In this document: positions 4,933 to 15,530 of the stretch, one piece after another
How the letters are laid out: every line of letters starts with the position of its first letter
Numbering within the stretch: the stretch's first letter is position 1
NCBI GenBank assembly: GCA_903866625.1
Contig: CAIPOI010000002.1
Coordinates: 37,063 to 101,062 of the forward strand
Source of the DNA: an uncultured archaeon
GTDB taxonomy: Archaea; Nanobdellota; Nanobdellia; Pacearchaeales; GW2011-AR1
Reading direction: 5' to 3'
DNA length: 64,000 bases
Position numbers and translations under genes: made by a program
Notes under the pieces: model-generated
Database searches by the model: none
The model's input: the letters and a program-made list of their open reading frames with translations, nothing else
Told to the model about the DNA's origin: nothing

Positions 4933-6804
4933 ATGAAAAAGGGTGTTAGTTGTATATTTGCTGTTTTAGTGCTTTCTATTCTTGCACTTTCTATGCTTTT
5001 AGCAGCAGATAATTCTTCAAATTCCACTTCAAATTCTTCTTCAACTTCCTTAACAGGATTTGAAAAATCCTATAGTTGTCTTAAAGATATTCTAGCAGGG
5101 AAAGATGTTACAAAACTAACTCAAGATGAACTTTCTTTCTCTTTACTTGCTATGTCTTATGATTCTTCTACTCAGACAAAAATAAAAAATGAATTAATGG
5201 TAAGGCAAGATTCCAGTAAATGTTGGCCAAAAGGCGCTTGCACAATAAGAGATACTGCAATTGCTCTTCTGGCACTTGACTCTATAGGCAAAGATACTAA
5301 GGACATACAAAATTGGCTTACTAATCAAACTATGAGCCCAACAGATTTAACTTGGTTTCTTCAAATTGATACTGATGCTACCACAAAAACAAAATGTACT
5401 ATCACTGCTGATGGAAGTTCAAAAACTATCTATGTAAATGAAGATAAAACTCTATCTGGAACTCCTGGAAGTTGCTTTACAATAGCTAATAATGATTGGT
5501 GGTTGCAAATCAATCCAAAATGTTATGGAAAGGATATTCAAGTTCAATGCGACAATTCTTTTTTAATAGCTACTCATTTTAAGAGAAAACTTGAAGATGT
5601 TAACTGGATTCCAGCAACAACTCAAACTTCTTCACCTGGCGGAACAAGAAATATCAGCGTTAATTCTATCTGCTTTAAAAAATCTGGAAGTTGTAATTAC
5701 GAAGGTAGCTTATGGGCTTCTCTAGCTTTAAACAAAAAAGACTCTTCAATAAGAGAAAAAGTTCTACCCTATCTTATGACTTCTGCCAGTGCAAATGAAA
5801 GATTACTTCCTTCTTCTTTCTTATATATGATTACTGGATATAATGATTATTTCCAAGAACTAACTAATCTTCAAAAGACACAAGGTTACTGGCAGGTTAC
5901 TTCTGAACAATCAAGAAGATACTATGATACTGCTACTGCTTTACTCGCTTTAAATGAAAGAGCAGAACAAGCAGATACAGCAAAAGAATATTTAATTCAA
6001 CCTGATGTTCAGGGTTCAGATGGCTGTTACAATAAAAATATTGCCGATGTAGCTTACATACTTTACGCATCTTCTCCAAAAACTCCTGTTTCAACAACTG
6101 ATACTGTAAGAAGTCAATGCGCAGATTTTTCTACTCAATATGGTTATAGCTGTTCAACTTCCAGAGATTGTGAATCTCAGGGCGGAAAAGTTTTAACAAA
6201 CTTTGATTGCTTCTCAGGATTTGTCTGTTGCAGCATTTCTACTACTCAAAAAGCCTGTCTGGATATGGGTGGAAAAAAATGTTCCTCTACTCAAGAATGT
6301 AGTTCTGGAGGATTTTCTCTAGCTTCAGATACAAGTTATTGTTGCTTATCTGGGGATTGTCAAGATAAATCTTCTGATACCCTGAATGAGTGTGAGCAGC
6401 AGGGTTCTGGCTATTTTTGTAGCTCTTCATGCGACTCTGCAAATATTCAAAACTTTGAATGTTCTAACTCTGGAGAATACTGCTGTTCTTCAAGTCAAGC
6501 AAAGAAAAGTCTTTGGTGGGTTTGGGTATTAATCTTACTAATTATTCTTTTAGCACTAGCCATAATCTTTAGAAATCAACTAAAAGTTTGGCTATTTAAA
6601 AGAGAGTCTGGATTTTCAAAATCTCCACTATCTCAAGAATCAAGACCTCCAATGCCACCTTCAAATCAGGGATTAATGTCTATGCCAAGAAGAATCTTGC
6701 CAAATCCCTCTTCAAGACCAATCTCTCCAATGCAGAGAAGACCTTTTCCAAAAGATAGAGAATTGGACGAAACTTTAAGGAAACTTAAGGATATGAGCAA
6801 ATAA
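4933..6804 (+). CDS. Secreted, C-terminally TM-anchored surface protein: alpha/alpha-toroid (prenyltransferase/terpene-cyclase-like repeat) region, three Cys-rich modules, TM helix, Pro-rich cytoplasmic tail
   Basis: Signal peptide MKKGVSCIFAVLVLSILALSML. Repeated DTAIALLAL / TATALLAL motifs. Cys-rich modules at 6118..6486. TM helix WWVWVLILLIILLALAIIF. Tail RPPMPPSNQG... Confidence 0.6.
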   Translation: MKKGVSCIFAVLVLSILALSMLLAADNSSNSTSNSSSTSLTGFEKSYSCLKDILAGKDVTKLTQDELSFSLLAMSYDSSTQTKIKNELMVRQDSSKCWPKGACTIRDTAIALLALDSIGKDTKDIQNWLTNQTMSPTDLTWFLQIDTDATTKTKCTITADGSSKTIYVNEDKTLSGTPGSCFTIANNDWWLQINPKCYGKDIQVQCDNSFLIATHFKRKLEDVNWIPATTQTSSPGGTRNISVNSICFKKSGSCNYEGSLWASLALNKKDSSIREKVLPYLMTSASANERLLPSSFLYMITGYNDYFQELTNLQKTQGYWQVTSEQSRRYYDTATALLALNERAEQADTAKEYLIQPDVQGSDGCYNKNIADVAYILYASSPKTPVSTTDTVRSQCADFSTQYGYSCSTSRDCESQGGKVLTNFDCFSGFVCCSISTTQKACLDMGGKKCSSTQECSSGGFSLASDTSYCCLSGDCQDKSSDTLNECEQQGSGYFCSSSCDSANIQNFECSNSGEYCCSSSQAKKSLWWVWVLILLIILLALAIIFRNQLKVWLFKRESGFSKSPLSQESRPPMPPSNQGLMSMPRRILPNPSSRPISPMQRRPFPKDRELDETLRKLKDMSK

Positions 6805-6824
6805 TTTCTTTTTAATATATTATT

Positions 6825-8792
6825 CTAACTTACTTTTCCACCCTTTCTTTTAACTAGATAATCTAAAAACATGTTAGAATGAGTTCTAAAATCTTCAAAA
6901 GGTATTTCAAAAGTTACAGCATCAATAGAACTTGTTCCATCTAATAGCATTTCCATGCCCGCAAGTGCCAAGGGTTCCATTCCTCTCGCAATAGCTTTAT
7001 CAAGATATACCCTTGAATCTCTTACTCCAGTAGACATCAGTTTTTTTTCTTCAGCTCCAGGAATCCAAATTTCTGTAACTGGTTTTCTTCCACGATAACC
7101 CATATCCATACAGTGTTCGCACTTTTTTGTAGGGTCTTTAGCTCTATAAAGCCTTATGCCTCCGCCAAGATGTTCTTCATCAACGCCTAACAGCTCTCTC
7201 ATATCTTCAATGCCATTATAAGGAACTTTGCAGTTATCGCAGAGCTTTCTAACAAGTCTTTGAGCAACGATGCATCTTAAGAAATTTTGCAAGTCTGAAT
7301 TTTCAACTCCCATCTCAAAAAGTCTTGAGAGTGTTCCAGTAGCATCATTAGTATGCAGAGTTGAAAAAACCAAGTGTCCGGTCTTAGACGCTTCCATTGC
7401 TATTTTAGCAGTTTCTCCATCTCTGATTTCTCCAACAAGAATAACATCAGGGTCTTGTCTTAAATATCTCCTAAGCATTTCTGGAAAGGTTAATCCTATT
7501 TCGGGTCTTATCTGGGTTTGATTTATACCTTTGAGAGGTATTTCTATAGGGTCTTCAACAGAACCAATATTAATATCCGGTTTATTTAATTCTTGGAGTG
7601 CAGAATATAGCGTGGTTGTTTTTCCAGAACCCGTAGGACCTGTAACTAAAATTAATCCATTAGGCAATTCAGTTTGCCTCTTTAATTGAGTGTAAACCTT
7701 TTCAGGATAACCCAGTTTAGCTAGATTAAAATCCCTATCTAACTTTAACATTCTAAGAACTGCCTTTTCTCCAAAGAGAACCGGTATTGTAGAAACTCTG
7801 ATACTATATTCTTTTAAATATTTTTTAATTTCGTTGGCCATATCATCTTTTATAACGCTTTCGTCATCTGCTCTGTGCTCAAAAGTTATAACCCCATCTT
7901 GAGGGAGTCTTTTTTCTTCAATTCTTAATTTAGCAGAAGTCTTTACAGCATTAATTAAACTATTAAACACACTCATAGGAACTCTATATTCTGCTTCCTT
8001 TAACATTCCATCTACTCTGTATCTTATTCTACATCTTTCAGAATCAACTGGTTCTATATGCACATCTGTTGCCCCAAGTTTTCTGGCAGTTTTAAGAACT
8101 GCAAAATAAATTTTTCTGGCATTTTTTTCCTCATCAAAATTATTTAAAAATTGTCTTCTTTCATCAAATGCATTTGGGCCATAGGTTAAATCAAGAGCAT
8201 CCATAAATACTTTTTCAGGCAAAAAGATTCCTGTAACCTGATCTAGTATCCATTTCTTATCCGCTTCTAATGCAAGCTCTTCAGGTTCTAACTCACTCTC
8301 TAAATTTTTGGGCAATTTAAGATAATTATTAAAACAAGGAAGTAAGGAGCTTTCTAGTGCATCATAAATATTAACTGCATTTGCTATCTCTCCAGCATTA
8401 TGGGTTCTTATTCCCAAGGTTAGTCTTCTAATTGGTTGCTCTCCTGTCATCACATCTGCCTTTGTTCTTATTTCTTGAGCTAAAGGGATAATCCCATTTC
8501 TGTAAAATAAAGAATAATTATGTTCTTGAAATTCTGGATCGCTTGCTCCATTAGATTTTCTATCAAATTTAGTGAACTCAAGTCTATGGCCATGAAAAAA
8601 TTGAATCATATTCTCCCAGCTTGCAAAGGGCGTGGCTTCTATAAGGGGAACTGAATTACCTAGATAGGGCTGAAGTTCTGCTTCTAATCTTCCTATGTCT
8701 TGTAGTTGTGCCGGACTTAATCCTTCTATAGAGCTTCGCCTTAAAGAATCATATTTTAACTGTACAGCATTAGGTTCTGTAGACTCAACCAT
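6825..8792 (-). CDS. Type II/IV secretion / type IV pilus assembly ATPase, bacterial GspE/PilB type
   Basis: Walker A VTGPTGSGKTTTLYS. Walker B/Asp box DPDVILVGEIRD. His box TGHLVFSTLHTND. Tetracysteine CDNC...CEHC is followed by GYRGR. Confidence 0.85.
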   Translation of the reverse strand: MVESTEPNAVQLKYDSLRRSSIEGLSPAQLQDIGRLEAELQPYLGNSVPLIEATPFASWENMIQFFHGHRLEFTKFDRKSNGASDPEFQEHNYSLFYRNGIIPLAQEIRTKADVMTGEQPIRRLTLGIRTHNAGEIANAVNIYDALESSLLPCFNNYLKLPKNLESELEPEELALEADKKWILDQVTGIFLPEKVFMDALDLTYGPNAFDERRQFLNNFDEEKNARKIYFAVLKTARKLGATDVHIEPVDSERCRIRYRVDGMLKEAEYRVPMSVFNSLINAVKTSAKLRIEEKRLPQDGVITFEHRADDESVIKDDMANEIKKYLKEYSIRVSTIPVLFGEKAVLRMLKLDRDFNLAKLGYPEKVYTQLKRQTELPNGLILVTGPTGSGKTTTLYSALQELNKPDINIGSVEDPIEIPLKGINQTQIRPEIGLTFPEMLRRYLRQDPDVILVGEIRDGETAKIAMEASKTGHLVFSTLHTNDATGTLSRLFEMGVENSDLQNFLRCIVAQRLVRKLCDNCKVPYNGIEDMRELLGVDEEHLGGGIRLYRAKDPTKKCEHCMDMGYRGRKPVTEIWIPGAEEKKLMSTGVRDSRVYLDKAIARGMEPLALAGMEMLLDGTSSIDAVTFEIPFEDFRTHSNMFLDYLVKRKGGKVS

Positions 8793-12314: not shown

Positions 12315-12481
12315 AATTATAAAACTCTTTTCAGAGTTTTTATAGTTAACCTCTAATATCTAAGCTTTAACTCAAAAATTAAAACTTTCAGAAAGGCTAA
12401 AGGTCAAAAATCCAAAAACTTCAGTTTATAAGGGCTATTAATCAAAACTACATATAAAACACTCTTATGCACAATAAAAAA

Positions 12482-12535
12482 TAGATTTGTCTATCCCCCG
12501 ACCACCCGCCCCTGACCGAAAGGCTTAAATACTAT
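12482..12535 (+). repeat. C-rich repeat copy A (tagatttgtctatcccccgaccacccgcccctgaccgaaaggcttaaatac)
   Basis: It is similar by eye to copy L at 15008..15057: tagattt..tatccc..ccacccg..gaa(a/g)gg..(t)aaatac/atttac, with a 9-nt insertion. It includes the BRE/TATA for the gene at 12562. Confidence 0.5.
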
Positions 12536-12561
12536 AAGTATTCCATGTATACATATACAAA

Positions 12562-13038
12562 ATGGCAGAAAAAGTTAAGGCAACAATAAAAACTGGTTCG
12601 GGAGTAGAGATAGTTATAGAAAGCGATAGGAGGACTGTTCAGGAAATTGTTTCAGAAATTCACAGAAGAGAAGAGTCAAGAGTCCGATTTAGAGAGGAAT
12701 TTGAAAAGAGAAGAGAATTGGAAAGAAAGAGATTTATTGAACTAAGGCAAAAAAGAAATGAGCTCGTTCATGGAGAGAGTAAAAATCACGAAAAAGAAAG
12801 AAATAGGGCTAAAACAAAAATGGATGTTTTTGCAGATTTGATAAGGCAGGGCTTTTTTAACGAATCTAGAAATCTCGGAGAAGTACAGAAAGTTTTGGAA
12901 GAAAAAGGTTATCATTATCCTGTAACCTCTCTGTCTCCTACATTACTCCGACTTGTGAGAAAAGGAGAATTAAGGAGAACTAAACAAATAAAAGATGACA
13001 AGGAAATGTGGGTTTATAATTCAGGAGATGGAAAATGA
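12562..13038 (+). CDS. wHTH-like module protein 1 of 5 (charged coiled-coil N-terminus)
   Basis: C-terminal module DLIRQGFFNESRNLGEVQKVLEEKGYHYPVTSLSPTLLRLVRKGELRR...WVY is shared with the next four genes. Family unknown. Confidence 0.6.
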   Translation: MAEKVKATIKTGSGVEIVIESDRRTVQEIVSEIHRREESRVRFREEFEKRRELERKRFIELRQKRNELVHGESKNHEKERNRAKTKMDVFADLIRQGFFNESRNLGEVQKVLEEKGYHYPVTSLSPTLLRLVRKGELRRTKQIKDDKEMWVYNSGDGK

Positions 13039-13349
13039 ACAAGGAGATAAAAAGCGAATTTAACAGGGTGTGGCAAGCAATTCGTAAGCTCGAAGGCAAA
13101 CCTTCAGCTAAAAAACCAGTTAATGAAGGCAAGAAATCAAAAAGATCTATTACCAAACTGATATTGGAGTTAAAATCAGAGGGTTTCTTTAAGTCTCCTA
13201 AGACTTCTGAAGAAATACGGGCGGCTTTGGCAGCGAATGGGCATCATTATGCAGCACCAAGTTTGACTTGGTCATTGCAAGAACTGGTAAGAAAGAGAGA
13301 ATTTGGAAGAATTCCTGAAGGGAAGGGCTGGAGGTATGCTGCAAGATAA
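13035..13349 (+). CDS. wHTH-like module protein 2 of 5
   Basis: LILELKSEGFFKSPKTSEEIRAALAANGHHYAAPSLTWSLQELVRKREFGR...WRY. ATGA overlap with gene 1. Confidence 0.6.
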   Translation: MNKEIKSEFNRVWQAIRKLEGKPSAKKPVNEGKKSKRSITKLILELKSEGFFKSPKTSEEIRAALAANGHHYAAPSLTWSLQELVRKREFGRIPEGKGWRYAAR

Positions 13350-13350
13350 G

Positions 13351-13599
13351 ATGAAAATCGCAAAAACTGCTACAGAAGGGCTCATAATTTTATGGTCAGA
13401 AAAGTTTTTTGAGAAGTTTAGAAAGGTCTCTGATATCGTAGAAAATTTTTCAAAGAGACACCATCATTTCAGTGATGCTGAACTTGGAATGGCTCTAAAA
13501 AGAGCAAGCTATCTTACTCGAAAGGGCAAACGCGGGAGCTATGAGTATATTCAAAAGCATCCTTATGTAGAAGAGGAAAAAAATGTTAAAAGAAAATGA
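13351..13599 (+). CDS. wHTH-like module protein 3 of 5 (most divergent)
   Basis: The ATG at 13351 lies immediately after the stop of gene 2; the track start at 13303 would overlap by 47 nt. Module: LIILWSEKFFEKFRKVSDIVENFSKRHHHFSDAELGMALKRASYLTRKGKR. Confidence 0.5.
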   Translation: MKIAKTATEGLIILWSEKFFEKFRKVSDIVENFSKRHHHFSDAELGMALKRASYLTRKGKRGSYEYIQKHPYVEEEKNVKRK

Positions 13600-13933
13600 A
13601 CTGAATAGCCTAATTAAGCTGTTAAAAGATCATGAAAGGAGAATATCTGTGCTTGAAGGAAAAAAGATTGGCAAATCAAAACCCTCTACTCACGAATGGT
13701 ACAAGCCAGGAAGTACCATAGAAAAAATCGTATTGCTTATCCATGAAAAATTCTTTAATCAACCGAGAAGTATATCGGAGATTATAGAAAAACTTGCAAC
13801 AAAGGATTATCATCTAGGAGCCTCAGACTTAACGCTTCCATTAAGAAAAATTGTAAGAAAGGGGATGCTGTCTAAAACGAAGAAAAATGCAGATGGTTCT
13901 TTATCTAAGAAATGGTTATACTTGAGGGTTTAG
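13583..13933 (+). CDS. wHTH-like module protein 4 of 5
   Basis: IVLLIHEKFFNQPRSISEIIEKLATKDYHLGASDLTLPLRKIVRKGMLSK...WLY. Confidence 0.6.
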   Translation: MLKENELNSLIKLLKDHERRISVLEGKKIGKSKPSTHEWYKPGSTIEKIVLLIHEKFFNQPRSISEIIEKLATKDYHLGASDLTLPLRKIVRKGMLSKTKKNADGSLSKKWLYLRV

Positions 13934-13935
13934 AT

Positions 13936-14715
13936 ATGGATTCAAAGAAAGATATTTTGGGGAAAGCAAAGGTGTTTTTAGATAAAAAAGGAAGCTTTGT
14001 TTATCGAGTATGTAAATTATTAGTTGATGGAGAATTCAATGAAGTTTTATCTTCAGCAGATTTAACCCATTTGCTGAACGAAGGCGCGGGTAAAAAAATT
14101 AAGCCAAATAATTTGACTGCTTTAATGGAGCCATTATTGCGCGAGGATGTAGTCAAGGTTAAAATCACTGGAAATGGGAGAAACAAGAAAAAATTTTGGT
14201 TTCCTGGTTGGTTAGATAAAAAACAACTAGAATGTTCACTCAAGTTAGACAAAGGGGCAATGTTCTTTAGTGGCAAGGGTTCCTGGACAGATCCAAACAA
14301 GAACTTTCCAAAGATTGTATCTCTCTTAGAGGGAGACTTGTGCGTGGTGGATCCCTATTACGGAAATGGCACTTTTTTTGCCTTAGAGAAATTTGGTAAT
14401 AAAAGAAAAATTAGATTTTTAACTTGCAAATTAGGAGGGGAAGAACAAGATAATCCTACAAAATTTGATAATAACTTAAAGAGATTTAAAAAGGAATTCA
14501 AAAATATAGAACTTCGAGAGTATGAGAAATTTTATGAGTTACATGACAGGTATATAATCTCAGATAATGCTTTGGTCATCATAGGTTATGGAATCAAAGA
14601 TTTAGCGGACAAAGAATCTTTTATAGTGTTCTTACCAAAAAATTTAGTTAAGGATTTTCTGCCTACATTAAAAAAGACTTTTGAAATGCGTTGGAGCAAA
14701 TCTCGCAAGATTTAG
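13936..14715 (+). CDS. wHTH-like module fused to a MIT_C / phospholipase-D-like C-terminal domain (5 of 5)
   Basis: The ATG at 13936 directly follows the stop of gene 4; the track start is 13912. N-terminal module: VCKLLVDGEFNEVLSSADLTHLLNEGAG...LMEPLLREDVVKV. C-terminal part: CVVDPYYGNGTFFALEKF...KIRFLTCK...ELHDRYIISDNALVIIGYGIKDL, resembling the MIT_C pattern DPY...HDR.I...G.G.D. Confidence 0.55.
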   Translation: MDSKKDILGKAKVFLDKKGSFVYRVCKLLVDGEFNEVLSSADLTHLLNEGAGKKIKPNNLTALMEPLLREDVVKVKITGNGRNKKKFWFPGWLDKKQLECSLKLDKGAMFFSGKGSWTDPNKNFPKIVSLLEGDLCVVDPYYGNGTFFALEKFGNKRKIRFLTCKLGGEEQDNPTKFDNNLKRFKKEFKNIELREYEKFYELHDRYIISDNALVIIGYGIKDLADKESFIVFLPKNLVKDFLPTLKKTFEMRWSKSRKI

Positions 14716-14777
14716 CTTCTAATCCTTTTCACAAACAGAAACTAACTTCGCCTAATGAACATAACTAACCAAACCGC

Positions 14778-14798
14778 CTTCTTTTTAGAAAAAAGAAG
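14778..14798 (+). terminator. Possible terminator hairpin with T5 run (cttcttttt-aga-aaaaagaag)
   Basis: A perfect 9-bp stem with a 3-nt loop lies 63 nt after the stop at 14715, and the 5' arm contains TTTTT. A role in archaeal termination is uncertain. Confidence 0.25.
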
Positions 14799-15007
14799 CA
14801 AAAATTTCGAGCTGACCCCTAAAACCCCGACTATTATTCGAGCCCACCTGCGTCATAATAACTCATCGTTCGCAATATTCTTTGCTCACTCGCCCTATCA
14901 GGAGTATTCGCATCAGCTCTGATTTTCTCCAAAAATCGAGGATGCTCATCTCGATAGGGTCGGCTAAGCGGCTTAGTTTCAATATTTTTCTGCGGAAAAA
15001 TACTCTT

Positions 15008-15057
15008 CGCTCGATTTAGATTTTAGTTATCCCTCCCCCACCCGAAGGGGCATTTAC
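15008..15057 (+). repeat. Repeat copy L (left inverted-repeat arm of the HAD cassette; direct repeat of copy A)
   Basis: atttagattttag (15014..15026), a 17-nt C-rich spacer, then gaaggggcatttac (15044..15057). Both blocks are exact reverse complements of blocks in 15479..15530. Confidence 0.6.
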
Positions 15058-15443
15058 TCTTGTAAATTCTCGTCGATAAATTTCTTTAGTGTAATTAAGT
15101 CTTTCTTTTCTTTGTCGTAATTAAAGGCGATTATTCCAATAGATTGAGCACTCTTTACAGCATCTGGATTGTGCTCAAAGTAAATTACATCTTTCACACT
15201 CAAATTAAAATGCTTGAGCATAATTTCAAAGAATTTTGGGTTTGTTTTTTCTGGATTATGTTTTAAGGTAAATACTTCATAAGGCATTTTATCTAATCCA
15301 AAATTCTTCATTTGTTCGTCATCAGCGTTTGTTAGAATAATCTTTCGGTTAGGATATTTCTCAAGCATTTTATACATTTCTTGAAAGATGCCTTCGCTTT
15401 TAATTACAAAGGTATTAACTGCATCAACTAAAATGGTTTTCAT
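15054..15443 (-). CDS. Small HAD-superfamily hydrolase-like protein
   Basis: 129 aa. The N-terminal ILVDAVNTFV resembles HAD motif I of the DAxGT (haloacid-dehalogenase-like) variant. ILTNADDEQ and a later IYFEHNPD are also present. Function uncertain. Confidence 0.45.
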   Translation of the reverse strand: MKTILVDAVNTFVIKSEGIFQEMYKMLEKYPNRKIILTNADDEQMKNFGLDKMPYEVFTLKHNPEKTNPKFFEIMLKHFNLSVKDVIYFEHNPDAVKSAQSIGIIAFNYDKEKKDLITLKKFIDENLQE

Positions 15444-15478: not shown

Positions 15479-15530
15479 GTAAATGCCCCTTCCCCCGCCC
15501 ACGAAATTGCTAAAATCTAAATCTCGCTCG
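15479..15530 (+). repeat. Repeat copy R (right inverted-repeat arm of the HAD cassette)
   Basis: gtaaatgccccttc (15479..15492), a 17-nt C-rich spacer, then ctaaaatctaaat (15510..15522). It has the same 17-nt spacing as copy L with the arms inverted. Confidence 0.6.

Follow-up and report, generated by a model that had tools for sequence, protein, structure and literature searches.

A five-gene archaeal operon of winged-helix proteins ending in a phospholipase D-fold protein: a candidate conflict cassette of an undescribed family

The coupling of a DNA-binding sensor to a swappable nuclease is a known kind of architecture, and it is with systems of this and related kinds that we compare here a five-gene operon (positions 12562-14715, + strand) located in a 64,000-nucleotide stretch of DNA (hereafter the window) from contig CAIPOI010000002.1 of an uncultured archaeon affiliated with the Pacearchaeales. 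The operon codes for four small winged-helix proteins (genes 1 to 4), followed by a terminal protein (gene 5) in which a predicted winged helix is joined to a domain of the phospholipase D (PLD) fold. What is new in this operon and its relatives is that small winged-helix partner genes of two to four distinct kinds accompany the terminal gene, an arrangement encountered in none of the systems compared below; neither the small proteins nor the operon were found described in Pfam, NCBIfam, PHROGs, PADLOC 2023 or the literature. We consider the chances to be about even that the operon is a horizontally mobile conflict cassette (of the defence or abortive-infection type) belonging to an undescribed family, its function being predicted.

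The described domain closest to the C-terminus of gene 5 is the PB-PLD1 domain, which is MIT_C-like, possesses a conserved acidic residue together with an HDR motif, and occurs in some NsnC proteins (of the Menshen system) and in many BrxL C-termini (PMC12065111), where it is predicted, not proven, to be an enzymatic effector (PMC12065111). Gene 5 shares with this HDR/MIT_C clade the PLD fold, an invariant His-Asp-Arg in place of the HxK of canonical PLD enzymes and an invariant acidic residue (D139) positioned directly after a strand (residues 135-138), but differs from it in having an N-terminal winged helix instead of an MIT, inactive-PIN or AAA+ domain, and in scoring 14.9 bits with the Pfam MIT_C model (PF16565) against a gathering cutoff of 25. 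The partners differ as well: those of Menshen are a ParB-like protein and an ABC-ATPase, whereas here they are one to four small winged-helix genes. A C-terminal HDR-PLD domain of ~130 aa is likewise common to gene 5 and PDC-S05; T7, T5 and T4 were reported to plate less well on E. coli when a PDC-S05 representative was present (one preprint, bioRxiv 10.1101/2024.09.26.614923). The N-terminal half of PDC-S05, however, is unrelated (Virulence_RhuM in the tested representative), and the system consists of a single gene that lacks winged-helix partners. In PADLOC, the C-terminus of gene 5 matched PDC-S05 at 2e-10 (with weak matches to NsnC and DrmC), and for gene 5 and 14 of its relatives (E 2e-10 to 1e-16) only positions ~160-300 of the 306 in the model aligned; membership of gene 5 in PDC-S05 was consequently rejected, as only the C-terminal ~130 positions of the model match.

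TrmB and TrmBL2 resemble gene 5 in their two-domain architecture, in which a winged helix is followed by a PLD-like C-terminal domain, but they have no sequence relationship with gene 5, which differs from them by its HDR constellation, its sporadic distribution and its accompanying small paralogue genes. A literature search pairing TrmBL2 with phospholipase D returned nothing. The type IV restriction PLD-wH enzymes Aba4572I and CbaI (PMC11037411) also unite a winged-helix reader and a PLD-family nuclease in one chain and in a genome-conflict context, yet with the domain order reversed (wH-PLD in gene 5) and without small paralogue partners. Finally, in the AbiJ-NTD family and in RAZR (zinc finger plus DUF4145 HEPN), a conserved N-terminal domain is combined with alternating DUF4145-HEPN or HKD/PLD domains (PMC3710099, PMC13017515), whereas here the N-terminus is a winged helix, and the terminal protein forms part of a multi-subunit system with as many as four further winged-helix proteins.

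Winged-helix proteins and the terminal PLD-fold protein

The five open reading frames (ORFs), as called on the window, lie in tandem on the + strand and overlap or abut one another: genes 1 and 2 share an ATGA overlap at 13035-13038, the stop of gene 2 (13349) is separated by a 1-nt gap from the ATG of gene 3 (13351), genes 3 and 4 overlap by 17 nt at 13583, and the stop of gene 4 (13933) is separated by a 2-nt gap from the ATG of gene 5 (13936). A first-pass annotation of the window (made by a model from the sequence and a list of its ORFs) had already described five coupled genes with these junctions, and the junctions agreed on re-reading. The alternative in-frame starts of gene 3 (ATG 13336 and TTG 13303; public gene calls of 87 and 98 aa) and of gene 5 (ATG 13912; public gene call of 267 aa) leave the genes abutting or overlapping all the same, and we read the five genes as one co-transcribed operon whose proteins are probably made by coupled translation.

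Genes 1 to 4 have in common a domain of ~70 aa (hereafter the module). In gene 1 (12562-13038, + strand, 158 aa) an N-terminal beta-hairpin-like segment and a long charged helix precede the module (residues ~85-153, nt 12814-13020; module profile E 4e-26), and in gene 2 (13035-13349, + strand, 104 aa) it is preceded by a short helix ending in LEGK and a basic linker (module at residues ~37-104; E 2e-27). Gene 3 (13351-13599, + strand; 82 aa, or 87 aa from the ATG at 13336) consists of the module alone with an acidic/basic tail (E 9e-19), while in gene 4 (13583-13933, + strand, 116 aa) the winged helix (residues 45-115, nt 13715-13927) comes after a helix at the N-terminus (4-24) and a basic, disordered linker (25-44). 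Judged by Smith-Waterman scores against 500 shuffles, the modules of genes 1 and 2 (z 10.9), 1 and 4 (z 16.4), 2 and 4 (z 11.5) and 3 and 4 (z 11.5) are significantly related; gene 3 reaches a z of only ~3.7 against gene 1 or gene 2, and is tied in via gene 4. The annotation had seen the same module in all five genes, a view that the shuffling test upheld for genes 1 to 4, whereas the N-terminus of gene 5 proved no better than shuffles (pairwise z <= 2.2 against modules 1 to 4, and a profile score no better than those of 2000 shuffles). A profile-profile alignment placed residues 16-71 of gene 5 on residues 40-94 of gene 4, in the register that the annotation had proposed, at an E of 0.014 and a probability of 3%; with the profile at shuffle level and this alignment marginal, gene 5 was not counted as a member of the module family. 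The further statement that the N-terminal parts are unrelated to one another was only partly right: genes 2 and 4 align from residues 16 and 21 onward, respectively, and share the helix ending in LEGK as well as the basic linker.

The AlphaFold2 (AF2) model of gene 4 (built with 40 relatives; mean predicted local distance difference test score, pLDDT, 86.7, and above 93 over the module) displays three helices (residues 45-54, 64-73 and 80-92) and a two-strand wing (96-101 and 107-115). Its Foldseek matches were the winged helices of Fur, Zur, PadR, MecI and MarR, with a root-mean-square deviation of 2.4-3.5 over 70-78 columns, at a probability of up to 1.0 and E >= 0.012, which is evidence at the level of the fold. 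As judged from this model, which superposes on known domains of this kind, the module of the small proteins is a winged helix-turn-helix, as the first-pass annotation had supposed. The same annotation could not name a family, and this too was borne out: genes 1 to 4 gave no hit past threshold in Pfam, NCBIfam, PADLOC or PHROGs, and no curated family model covers the small proteins. The module family is nevertheless large in numbers, comprising 585 proteins in a word-indexed search (a Pfam domain being present on none of the 120 listed) and 1371 clusters at 50% identity (E <= 1e-3), among which nearly all of the 150 listed measure 100-160 aa and carry the module at the C-terminus. Several proteins of the gene 1 and gene 2 types start with a short beta-hairpin-like segment (e.g. 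KATIKTGSGVEIVIESD) ahead of the charged helix; this small, conserved N-terminal element was seen in the window (12562-12640, residues 5-22 of gene 1), in the proteins P0125, P0149 and P0166, and at locus L116 (3709-4098).

Gene 5 (13936-14715, + strand, 259 aa) was modelled by AF2 with 23 relatives (mean pLDDT 85.4) as an N-terminal winged helix (hereafter type A; residues 1-93, 13936-14214, + strand) and a C-terminal PLD-fold domain (residues 109-259, 14260-14715, + strand; alignments A2, A3 and A6, Foldseek and PADLOC), connected by a short, low-confidence linker with a predicted helix at residues 95-102. For the N-terminal domain, Foldseek retrieved PadR, YodB, TFE-alpha and MarR, and a weak match to the Pfam family MCM4_WHD was obtained in 11 of 33 gene 5 relatives; the model thus describes a winged helix that is predicted to be different from, or very divergent with respect to, that of the small proteins.

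The C-terminal domain (pLDDT ~90 over residues 130-259) matched NucT, Zucchini, PLD3 and FAM83 in Foldseek at E 1e-4 to 3e-6, with PLD4, F13, MITD1 and the TrmB sugar-binding domain among the further matches. The suggestion of the annotation that the last gene is PLD-like is thereby supported, both by the AF2 fold and by the matches to NucT, Zucchini, PLD3 and MITD1. The invariant motifs of the domain are WTDxN, VDPYYG, ELHDRYII[AS]DN...G[HY]GIKD, KESF and RW, and the residues W117, D119, N121, D139, Y142, G143, H203, D204, R205, Y206, G217, G219, E227, R252 and W253 are invariant in two sets of aligned relatives (23 and 16 proteins), to which K221 and D222 may be added, as they never vary in the set of 16 and hardly do in that of 23. 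The codons of His203-Asp204-Arg205 (14542-14550, + strand), as read from the sequence, specify a variant of the HxK motif of PLD enzymes, and the segment H203-D-R205-x4-D210-x6-G217-[YH]-G219-I-K221 retains the spacing of the canonical HxK(x4)D(x6)GSxN motif. The canonical motif itself is not present in gene 5, the lysine being replaced by arginine and GSxN by GxGxK, and each gene 5 protein carries one copy of the domain. MIT_C was the sole recurrent Pfam hit, detected in 15 of 33 relatives (best E 1.3e-4, all below the curated cutoff). Profile searches of solved structures with the gene 5 family, the module family, the PLD domain alone and a second C-terminal domain discussed below (domain X) gave only chance-level matches (L3, AgrA and AspA) and did not recover MITD1. 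On the strength of the motifs and the fold we assign the C-terminus of gene 5 to the HDR/MIT_C-like PLD clade, as a predicted nuclease effector.

Conservation of the operon and exchange of its effector domain

The protein collection searched yielded 137 relatives of gene 5, many of them 60-70% identical to it, with source names that range from Micrarchaeota to Paceibacterota. To the 23 loci that a scan of one genome per species yielded, a metagenome scan added 80 more; those of the species scan are distributed among Doudnabacteria and other bacteria of the Candidate Phyla Radiation (CPR), Gammaproteobacteria, Verrucomicrobiota, Planctomycetota, Acidiferrales and others, and, within the archaea, among Micrarchaeota, Woesearchaeota, Methanosarcinales and Nitrosopumilaceae. 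In a synteny census (an iterated module hidden Markov model run against all ORFs of the loci, limited to distinct loci in which the PLD-like gene has 1300 nt or more of sequence ahead of it, 59 in all), module genes were found directly upstream and on the same strand in 47 of the 59 loci, which belong to more than ten phyla: 12 loci had none, 15 had one, 20 had two, 11 had three and a single one (this window's genome) had four. The order is conserved, with genes of the g1/g2 type followed by the g3 type, the g4 type and the terminal gene.

For the g3 and g4 types, orthologues are readily recognised in other loci (80-150 bits, as compared to 25-50 for the next paralogue), those of gene 4 being ~60% identical and those of the g3 type occupying the equivalent position of other operons. 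Orthologues of the g2 type include the proteins P0124, P0125, P0127 and P0135 (alignment A4), and an orthologue of gene 1 is present at locus L116. We therefore regard the array as something other than a recent amplification, since orthologues in other genomes outscore the paralogues of the window, and the alignments indicate that genes 1 to 4 are old, subfunctionalised and order-conserved paralogues. The notion of a locally diversified paralogue array, advanced in the first-pass annotation, had accordingly to be given up, and an origin by recent local duplication was rejected, as the g2, g3 and g4 types are closer to their orthologues in other phyla than to the other paralogues of the window. 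In two loci an extra module gene lies on the opposite strand immediately 3' of the PLD-like gene and convergent with it (L020, 6517-6843, - strand, in a Nitrosopumilaceae metagenome-assembled genome; L083, 1981-2304, - strand, in a metagenome contig). A further observation concerns the loci L013, L014, L016 and L025, where the last module gene and the terminal gene are separated by an ORF of ~134-155 aa that escapes the module profile and perhaps encodes a partner of greater divergence.

Neither half of gene 5 is bound to the other. In the alignment of its relatives, the PLD domain occurs behind N-terminal domains of at least two unrelated kinds, and in other proteins the type A winged helix is fused to an unrelated C-terminal domain of 134 aa (domain X). 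The domain X family (431 proteins, mostly of ~215-220 aa) is more numerous than the PLD type, is covered by no curated model, and is characterized by the invariant motifs SGTC, FLLRKILEK and KFLGDTSAHNP. Most of the X-type proteins have, at the N-terminus, a true member of the module family that comes nearest to gene 3 (E ~1e-12), and one to four overlapping module genes stand upstream of the X-type gene; examples of such terminal proteins (~215-245 aa) are found at L116 (5001-5681), L117 (5001-5663), L119-L121 and L033 (6001-6738). At L116 the orthologues of genes 1, 2, 3 and 4 follow one another in the order of the window operon. Moreover, the small protein beside an X-type effector is often closest to one that stands beside a PLD-type effector (61% versus 29% identity at L033, and 66% versus 47% at L116). 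Since the small proteins adjoining domain X are closest to those adjoining the PLD domain, we argue from these comparisons that the effector has been exchanged repeatedly on a conserved small-protein scaffold.

With respect to the nature of domain X, 15 of 52 members matched DUF4145 (PF13643) weakly (best E 8e-4, below cutoff), and its K/R-x7-H motif ('IKFLGDTSAH') has the spacing of R146...H154 in RAZR, which is weakly suggestive of a DUF4145/HEPN-like domain. DUF4145 is a divergent HEPN domain (PMC3710099) and, as a HEPN RNase, constitutes the catalytic part of the abortive-infection protein RAZR (PMC13017515); in a survey of HEPN domains, the N-terminal domains of Abi proteins were found alternately fused to DUF4145 or to HKD/PLD nucleases (PMC3710099), an alternation that recurs in the present operons. 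On the 3' side of the X-type terminal gene of L117 there is a 142-aa ORF (5670-6098) with a HEIEH (HExxH-like) metallopeptidase motif, and a Peptidase_M78 (ImmA/IrrE-type) gene lies further on; the two may represent a regulatory protease link.

Predicted function and rival explanations

Taken together, the patchy distribution over bacteria and archaea, the swapping of effectors and the occurrence, at some loci, of restriction-modification (RM), Abi, Mrr and integrase neighbours are in agreement with the reading of the first-pass annotation (a mobile-element, conflict or addiction module), with the function remaining a prediction. We go further than this and propose, with a confidence that falls somewhat short of even, that the operon exemplifies a family of multi-subunit immune or conflict systems that is both large and undescribed, in which a hetero-oligomer of two to five winged-helix proteins would serve as a DNA-reading scaffold and an interchangeable effector (HDR-PLD or DUF4145-type HEPN) would be carried on the last winged helix, the whole being spread among CPR bacteria, DPANN, other archaea and several bacterial phyla.

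In such a system the small proteins, three of which (genes 1, 2 and 4) possess an N-terminal helix and a basic linker, would come together on DNA with the terminal protein's winged helix by way of their N-terminal helices, and the assembly would repress the operon from the promoter palindromes (12528-12559) and keep the effector inactive. Recognition of foreign or abnormal nucleic acid would then bring two effector domains together, in the manner of a dimerisation switch; two would have to meet because single-HKD PLD enzymes (Nuc, BfiI, Zucchini) need two domains per active site. The paired effectors might subsequently cut nucleic acid, which in the HEPN-type sister systems would be RNA. As the small proteins do not track the type of effector, they would be expected to touch DNA or the shared N-terminal winged helix and not the effector domain, and therefore a role as sensor or scaffold is favoured over that of a classical antitoxin.

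On the assumption that this proposal is accurate, the operon would represent a new multi-gene conflict architecture (distinct winged-helix subunits in fixed order plus a swappable nuclease), and would add a conflict architecture to DPANN archaea and CPR bacteria, for which, to our knowledge, few defence systems are known beyond CRISPR and RM. It would furthermore offer a tractable test of whether the HDR-PLD variant, which is also that of MITD1, BrxL and Menshen, is an enzyme, place the HDR-PLD (MIT_C) domain of eukaryotic MITD1 in the context of prokaryotic conflict systems, where an enzymatic role can be put to the test, and provide a fold and a genomic context for more than 1,000 unannotated small proteins.

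The surroundings of the related loci fit a partial association with defence islands or mobile DNA. Locus L033 neighbours an Mrr-type enzyme, a UvrD/PD-(D/E)XK helicase-nuclease, a type III RM pair and an integrase, and L004 neighbours Replic_Relax, resolvase and reverse transcriptase genes together with a type III RM pair as at L033. In raw counts over 140 ORFs at 21 loci, for which there is no matched background, the commonest neighbour families were Eco57I-type IIG RM (3) and phage integrase (3), followed, with 2 each, by N6_Mtase, N6_N4_Mtase, ResIII, Mrr_cat, HSDR_N and AbiEi; Radical_SAM and N_methyl (non-defence families) recurred equally often, and the remaining neighbours were mostly housekeeping singletons. 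The lack of a background for these counts is one of several points that weigh against a conflict function. The window operon, L119-L121 and many other loci sit among housekeeping genes and not in defence islands, and carriage on known mobile elements is unsupported, since no relative of gene 5 was found in IMG/VR, among GenBank phages or among PLSDB plasmids. Moreover, the PLD domain of gene 5 could be a binding domain, because the PLD lysine is an arginine here and MITD1 (the eukaryotic relative) is a membrane binder, not an enzyme. At L001, on a 460-kb bacterial contig, a gene for a YaaC-like protein (6823-7593; Pfam E 2e-26) comes directly after the operon, with two unannotated genes and then a dCMP-deaminase/HATPase_c_4 fusion beyond it, and these surroundings may be a defence-type neighbourhood.

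The gene order would also suit an addiction module resembling type II toxin-antitoxin (TA) systems, in which small winged-helix antitoxins or autorepressors neutralise a PLD- or HEPN-like toxin that is set free when the cassette is lost: the genes for small DNA-binding proteins come first and the putative nuclease last, stops and starts overlap, palindromes are present at the promoter, the distribution is patchy and horizontally transferred, the loci are often situated, like TA modules, amid housekeeping genes, and toxins with HEPN or PLD domains are known (PMC3710099). We nonetheless consider this explanation unlikely, as near-identical small proteins accompany unrelated effector domains without co-varying with the effector type, and no known TA layout comprises a fixed series of two to four different 'antitoxins'. 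A rather doubtful alternative is that the terminal proteins are regulators or chromatin proteins of the TrmB/TrmBL2 kind, in which the PLD-like domain serves for oligomerisation or for the binding of a small phosphorylated ligand, with genes 1 to 4 as accessory DNA-binding proteins and no nuclease involved, in which case we would be dealing with an ordinary regulator operon. It draws on the structural comparison, for the best Foldseek matches of the whole of gene 5 are chains of TrmBL2 (an archaeal chromatin protein; E 1e-9 to 3e-7), with a further match to the TrmB sugar-binding domain, as well as on the winged helices carried by all five proteins, on the MIT_C domain of MITD1 being a binding domain, and on the swapping of C-terminal domains that is typical of one-component regulators too. 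On the other hand, neither the TrmB winged-helix model of Pfam nor Regulator_TrmB was matched at E <= 1, the identity of 60-70% between bacteria and archaea and the sporadic distribution are unlike those of housekeeping regulators, the polar constellation resembling the PLD motif is invariant, the alternative C-terminal domain is DUF4145/HEPN-like, and some loci have RM, Mrr or Abi neighbours.

It is very improbable, in our view, that the five genes are instead maintenance or regulatory genes (partition, replication control, excision) of an integrated mobile element with C-rich repeats as its ends. This explanation starts from a C-rich direct repeat, which the first-pass annotation had noticed bracketing the block and which is indeed there: the upstream copy (TATCCCCCGACCACCCG, 12492-12508, + strand) lies just 5' of the operon promoter, the downstream copy (TATCCCTCCCCCACCCG, 15028-15044, + strand) differs from it by 3 mismatches, and the two enclose exactly the operon and its gene-free 3' spacer of 338 nt. 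Within 3 mismatches the downstream copy is the sole other match to TATCCCCCGACCACCCG in the 64 kb, and 0 of 100 shuffles gave one. The proximity of one relative to Replic_Relax, resolvase and reverse-transcriptase genes, the integrases among the neighbours, and the weak, non-significant match of the module to AspA (an archaeal plasmid partition protein, E 0.28, in a profile search of solved structures with the module family that gave chance-level matches only) point in the same direction. Yet no integrase, transposase or replication gene is present inside the bracket or within 10 kb, the plasmid and phage collections gave no hits, and no comparable flanking repeats were found in 49 related loci, where the best 17-mers were at shuffle level; 14 matches in 17 are ordinary in such comparisons, and the repeat of the window is exceptional only through its C-rich composition. 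Furthermore, the downstream copy is part of an imperfect inverted repeat of ~45 nt (15013-15057 versus 15479-15523) that flanks the neighbouring HAD-like gene (15054-15443, - strand). Its outer 14-nt arms (GATTTAGATTTTAG and GAAGGGGCATTTAC) are perfectly complementary, whereas the C-rich core is not inverted, being C-rich on the + strand in both copies. The inverted repeat could be an invertible element, one resembling miniature inverted-repeat transposable elements, or a pair of regulatory sites. With this inverted repeat at a neighbour gene, no integrase nearby and no counterpart in the 49 loci, the C-rich repeats are probably not ends of the operon, and we take the C-rich repeat to be a genome-specific repeated element.

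Promoter, spacer and neighbouring genes

A putative archaeal TATA box (TTAAATA, 12525-12531, + strand) was read ~34 nt 5' of the ATG of gene 1, with the purine-rich AAAGGC just before it, and is so assigned because the layout matches the known archaeal promoter pattern. Shine-Dalgarno-like motifs precede the ATGs of genes 2 (GGAG, 13024-13027), 4 (GAGG, 13573-13576) and 5 (GAGGG, 13924-13928) by 6-7 nt, and this layout, in which gene 1 would have little or no leader and the internal genes would be led by such motifs, is common in archaea. The segment from the TATA box to the start codon contains two short palindromes (12528-12559), AATACTATAAGTATT at 12528-12542 and TGTATACATATACA at 12546-12559, which may be taken as candidate operators; AT-rich palindromes recur at the equivalent position in several related loci, and in AT-rich DNA, where such palindromes are common, they constitute weak evidence. 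The operon had also been described as visibly richer in G+C than its surroundings, and the windowed analysis did find an excess (0.351, as compared to a window mean of 0.320, sd 0.017; 95th percentile), albeit a modest one that two other stretches of the window equal.

Downstream of gene 5 extends the gene-free spacer (14716-15053), which holds no ORF of 60 aa or more and contains tracts of oligo-T (TTTT at 14726-14729) as well as two hairpins, one carrying a T5 run (~14777-14800) and the other long and imperfect (~14894-14960). Its folding z-scores are about -2 on both strands, and the Rfam and tRNA scans found nothing in or next to the operon; the spacer could be a terminator region or code for a small RNA. 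The neighbours of the operon in the window comprise the genes for the Hjc resolvase, a HAD-like protein, a tRNA synthetase, the ribosomal proteins L31e and S19e, and an IF-2-type translation initiation factor, and such neighbours identify the host as an archaeon with AT-rich DNA. Immediately upstream of the divergent Hjc gene (start 12314, - strand) there is a palindrome with 11-bp arms (TATAAAACTCT-TTTC-AGAGTTTTTATA, 12317-12341).

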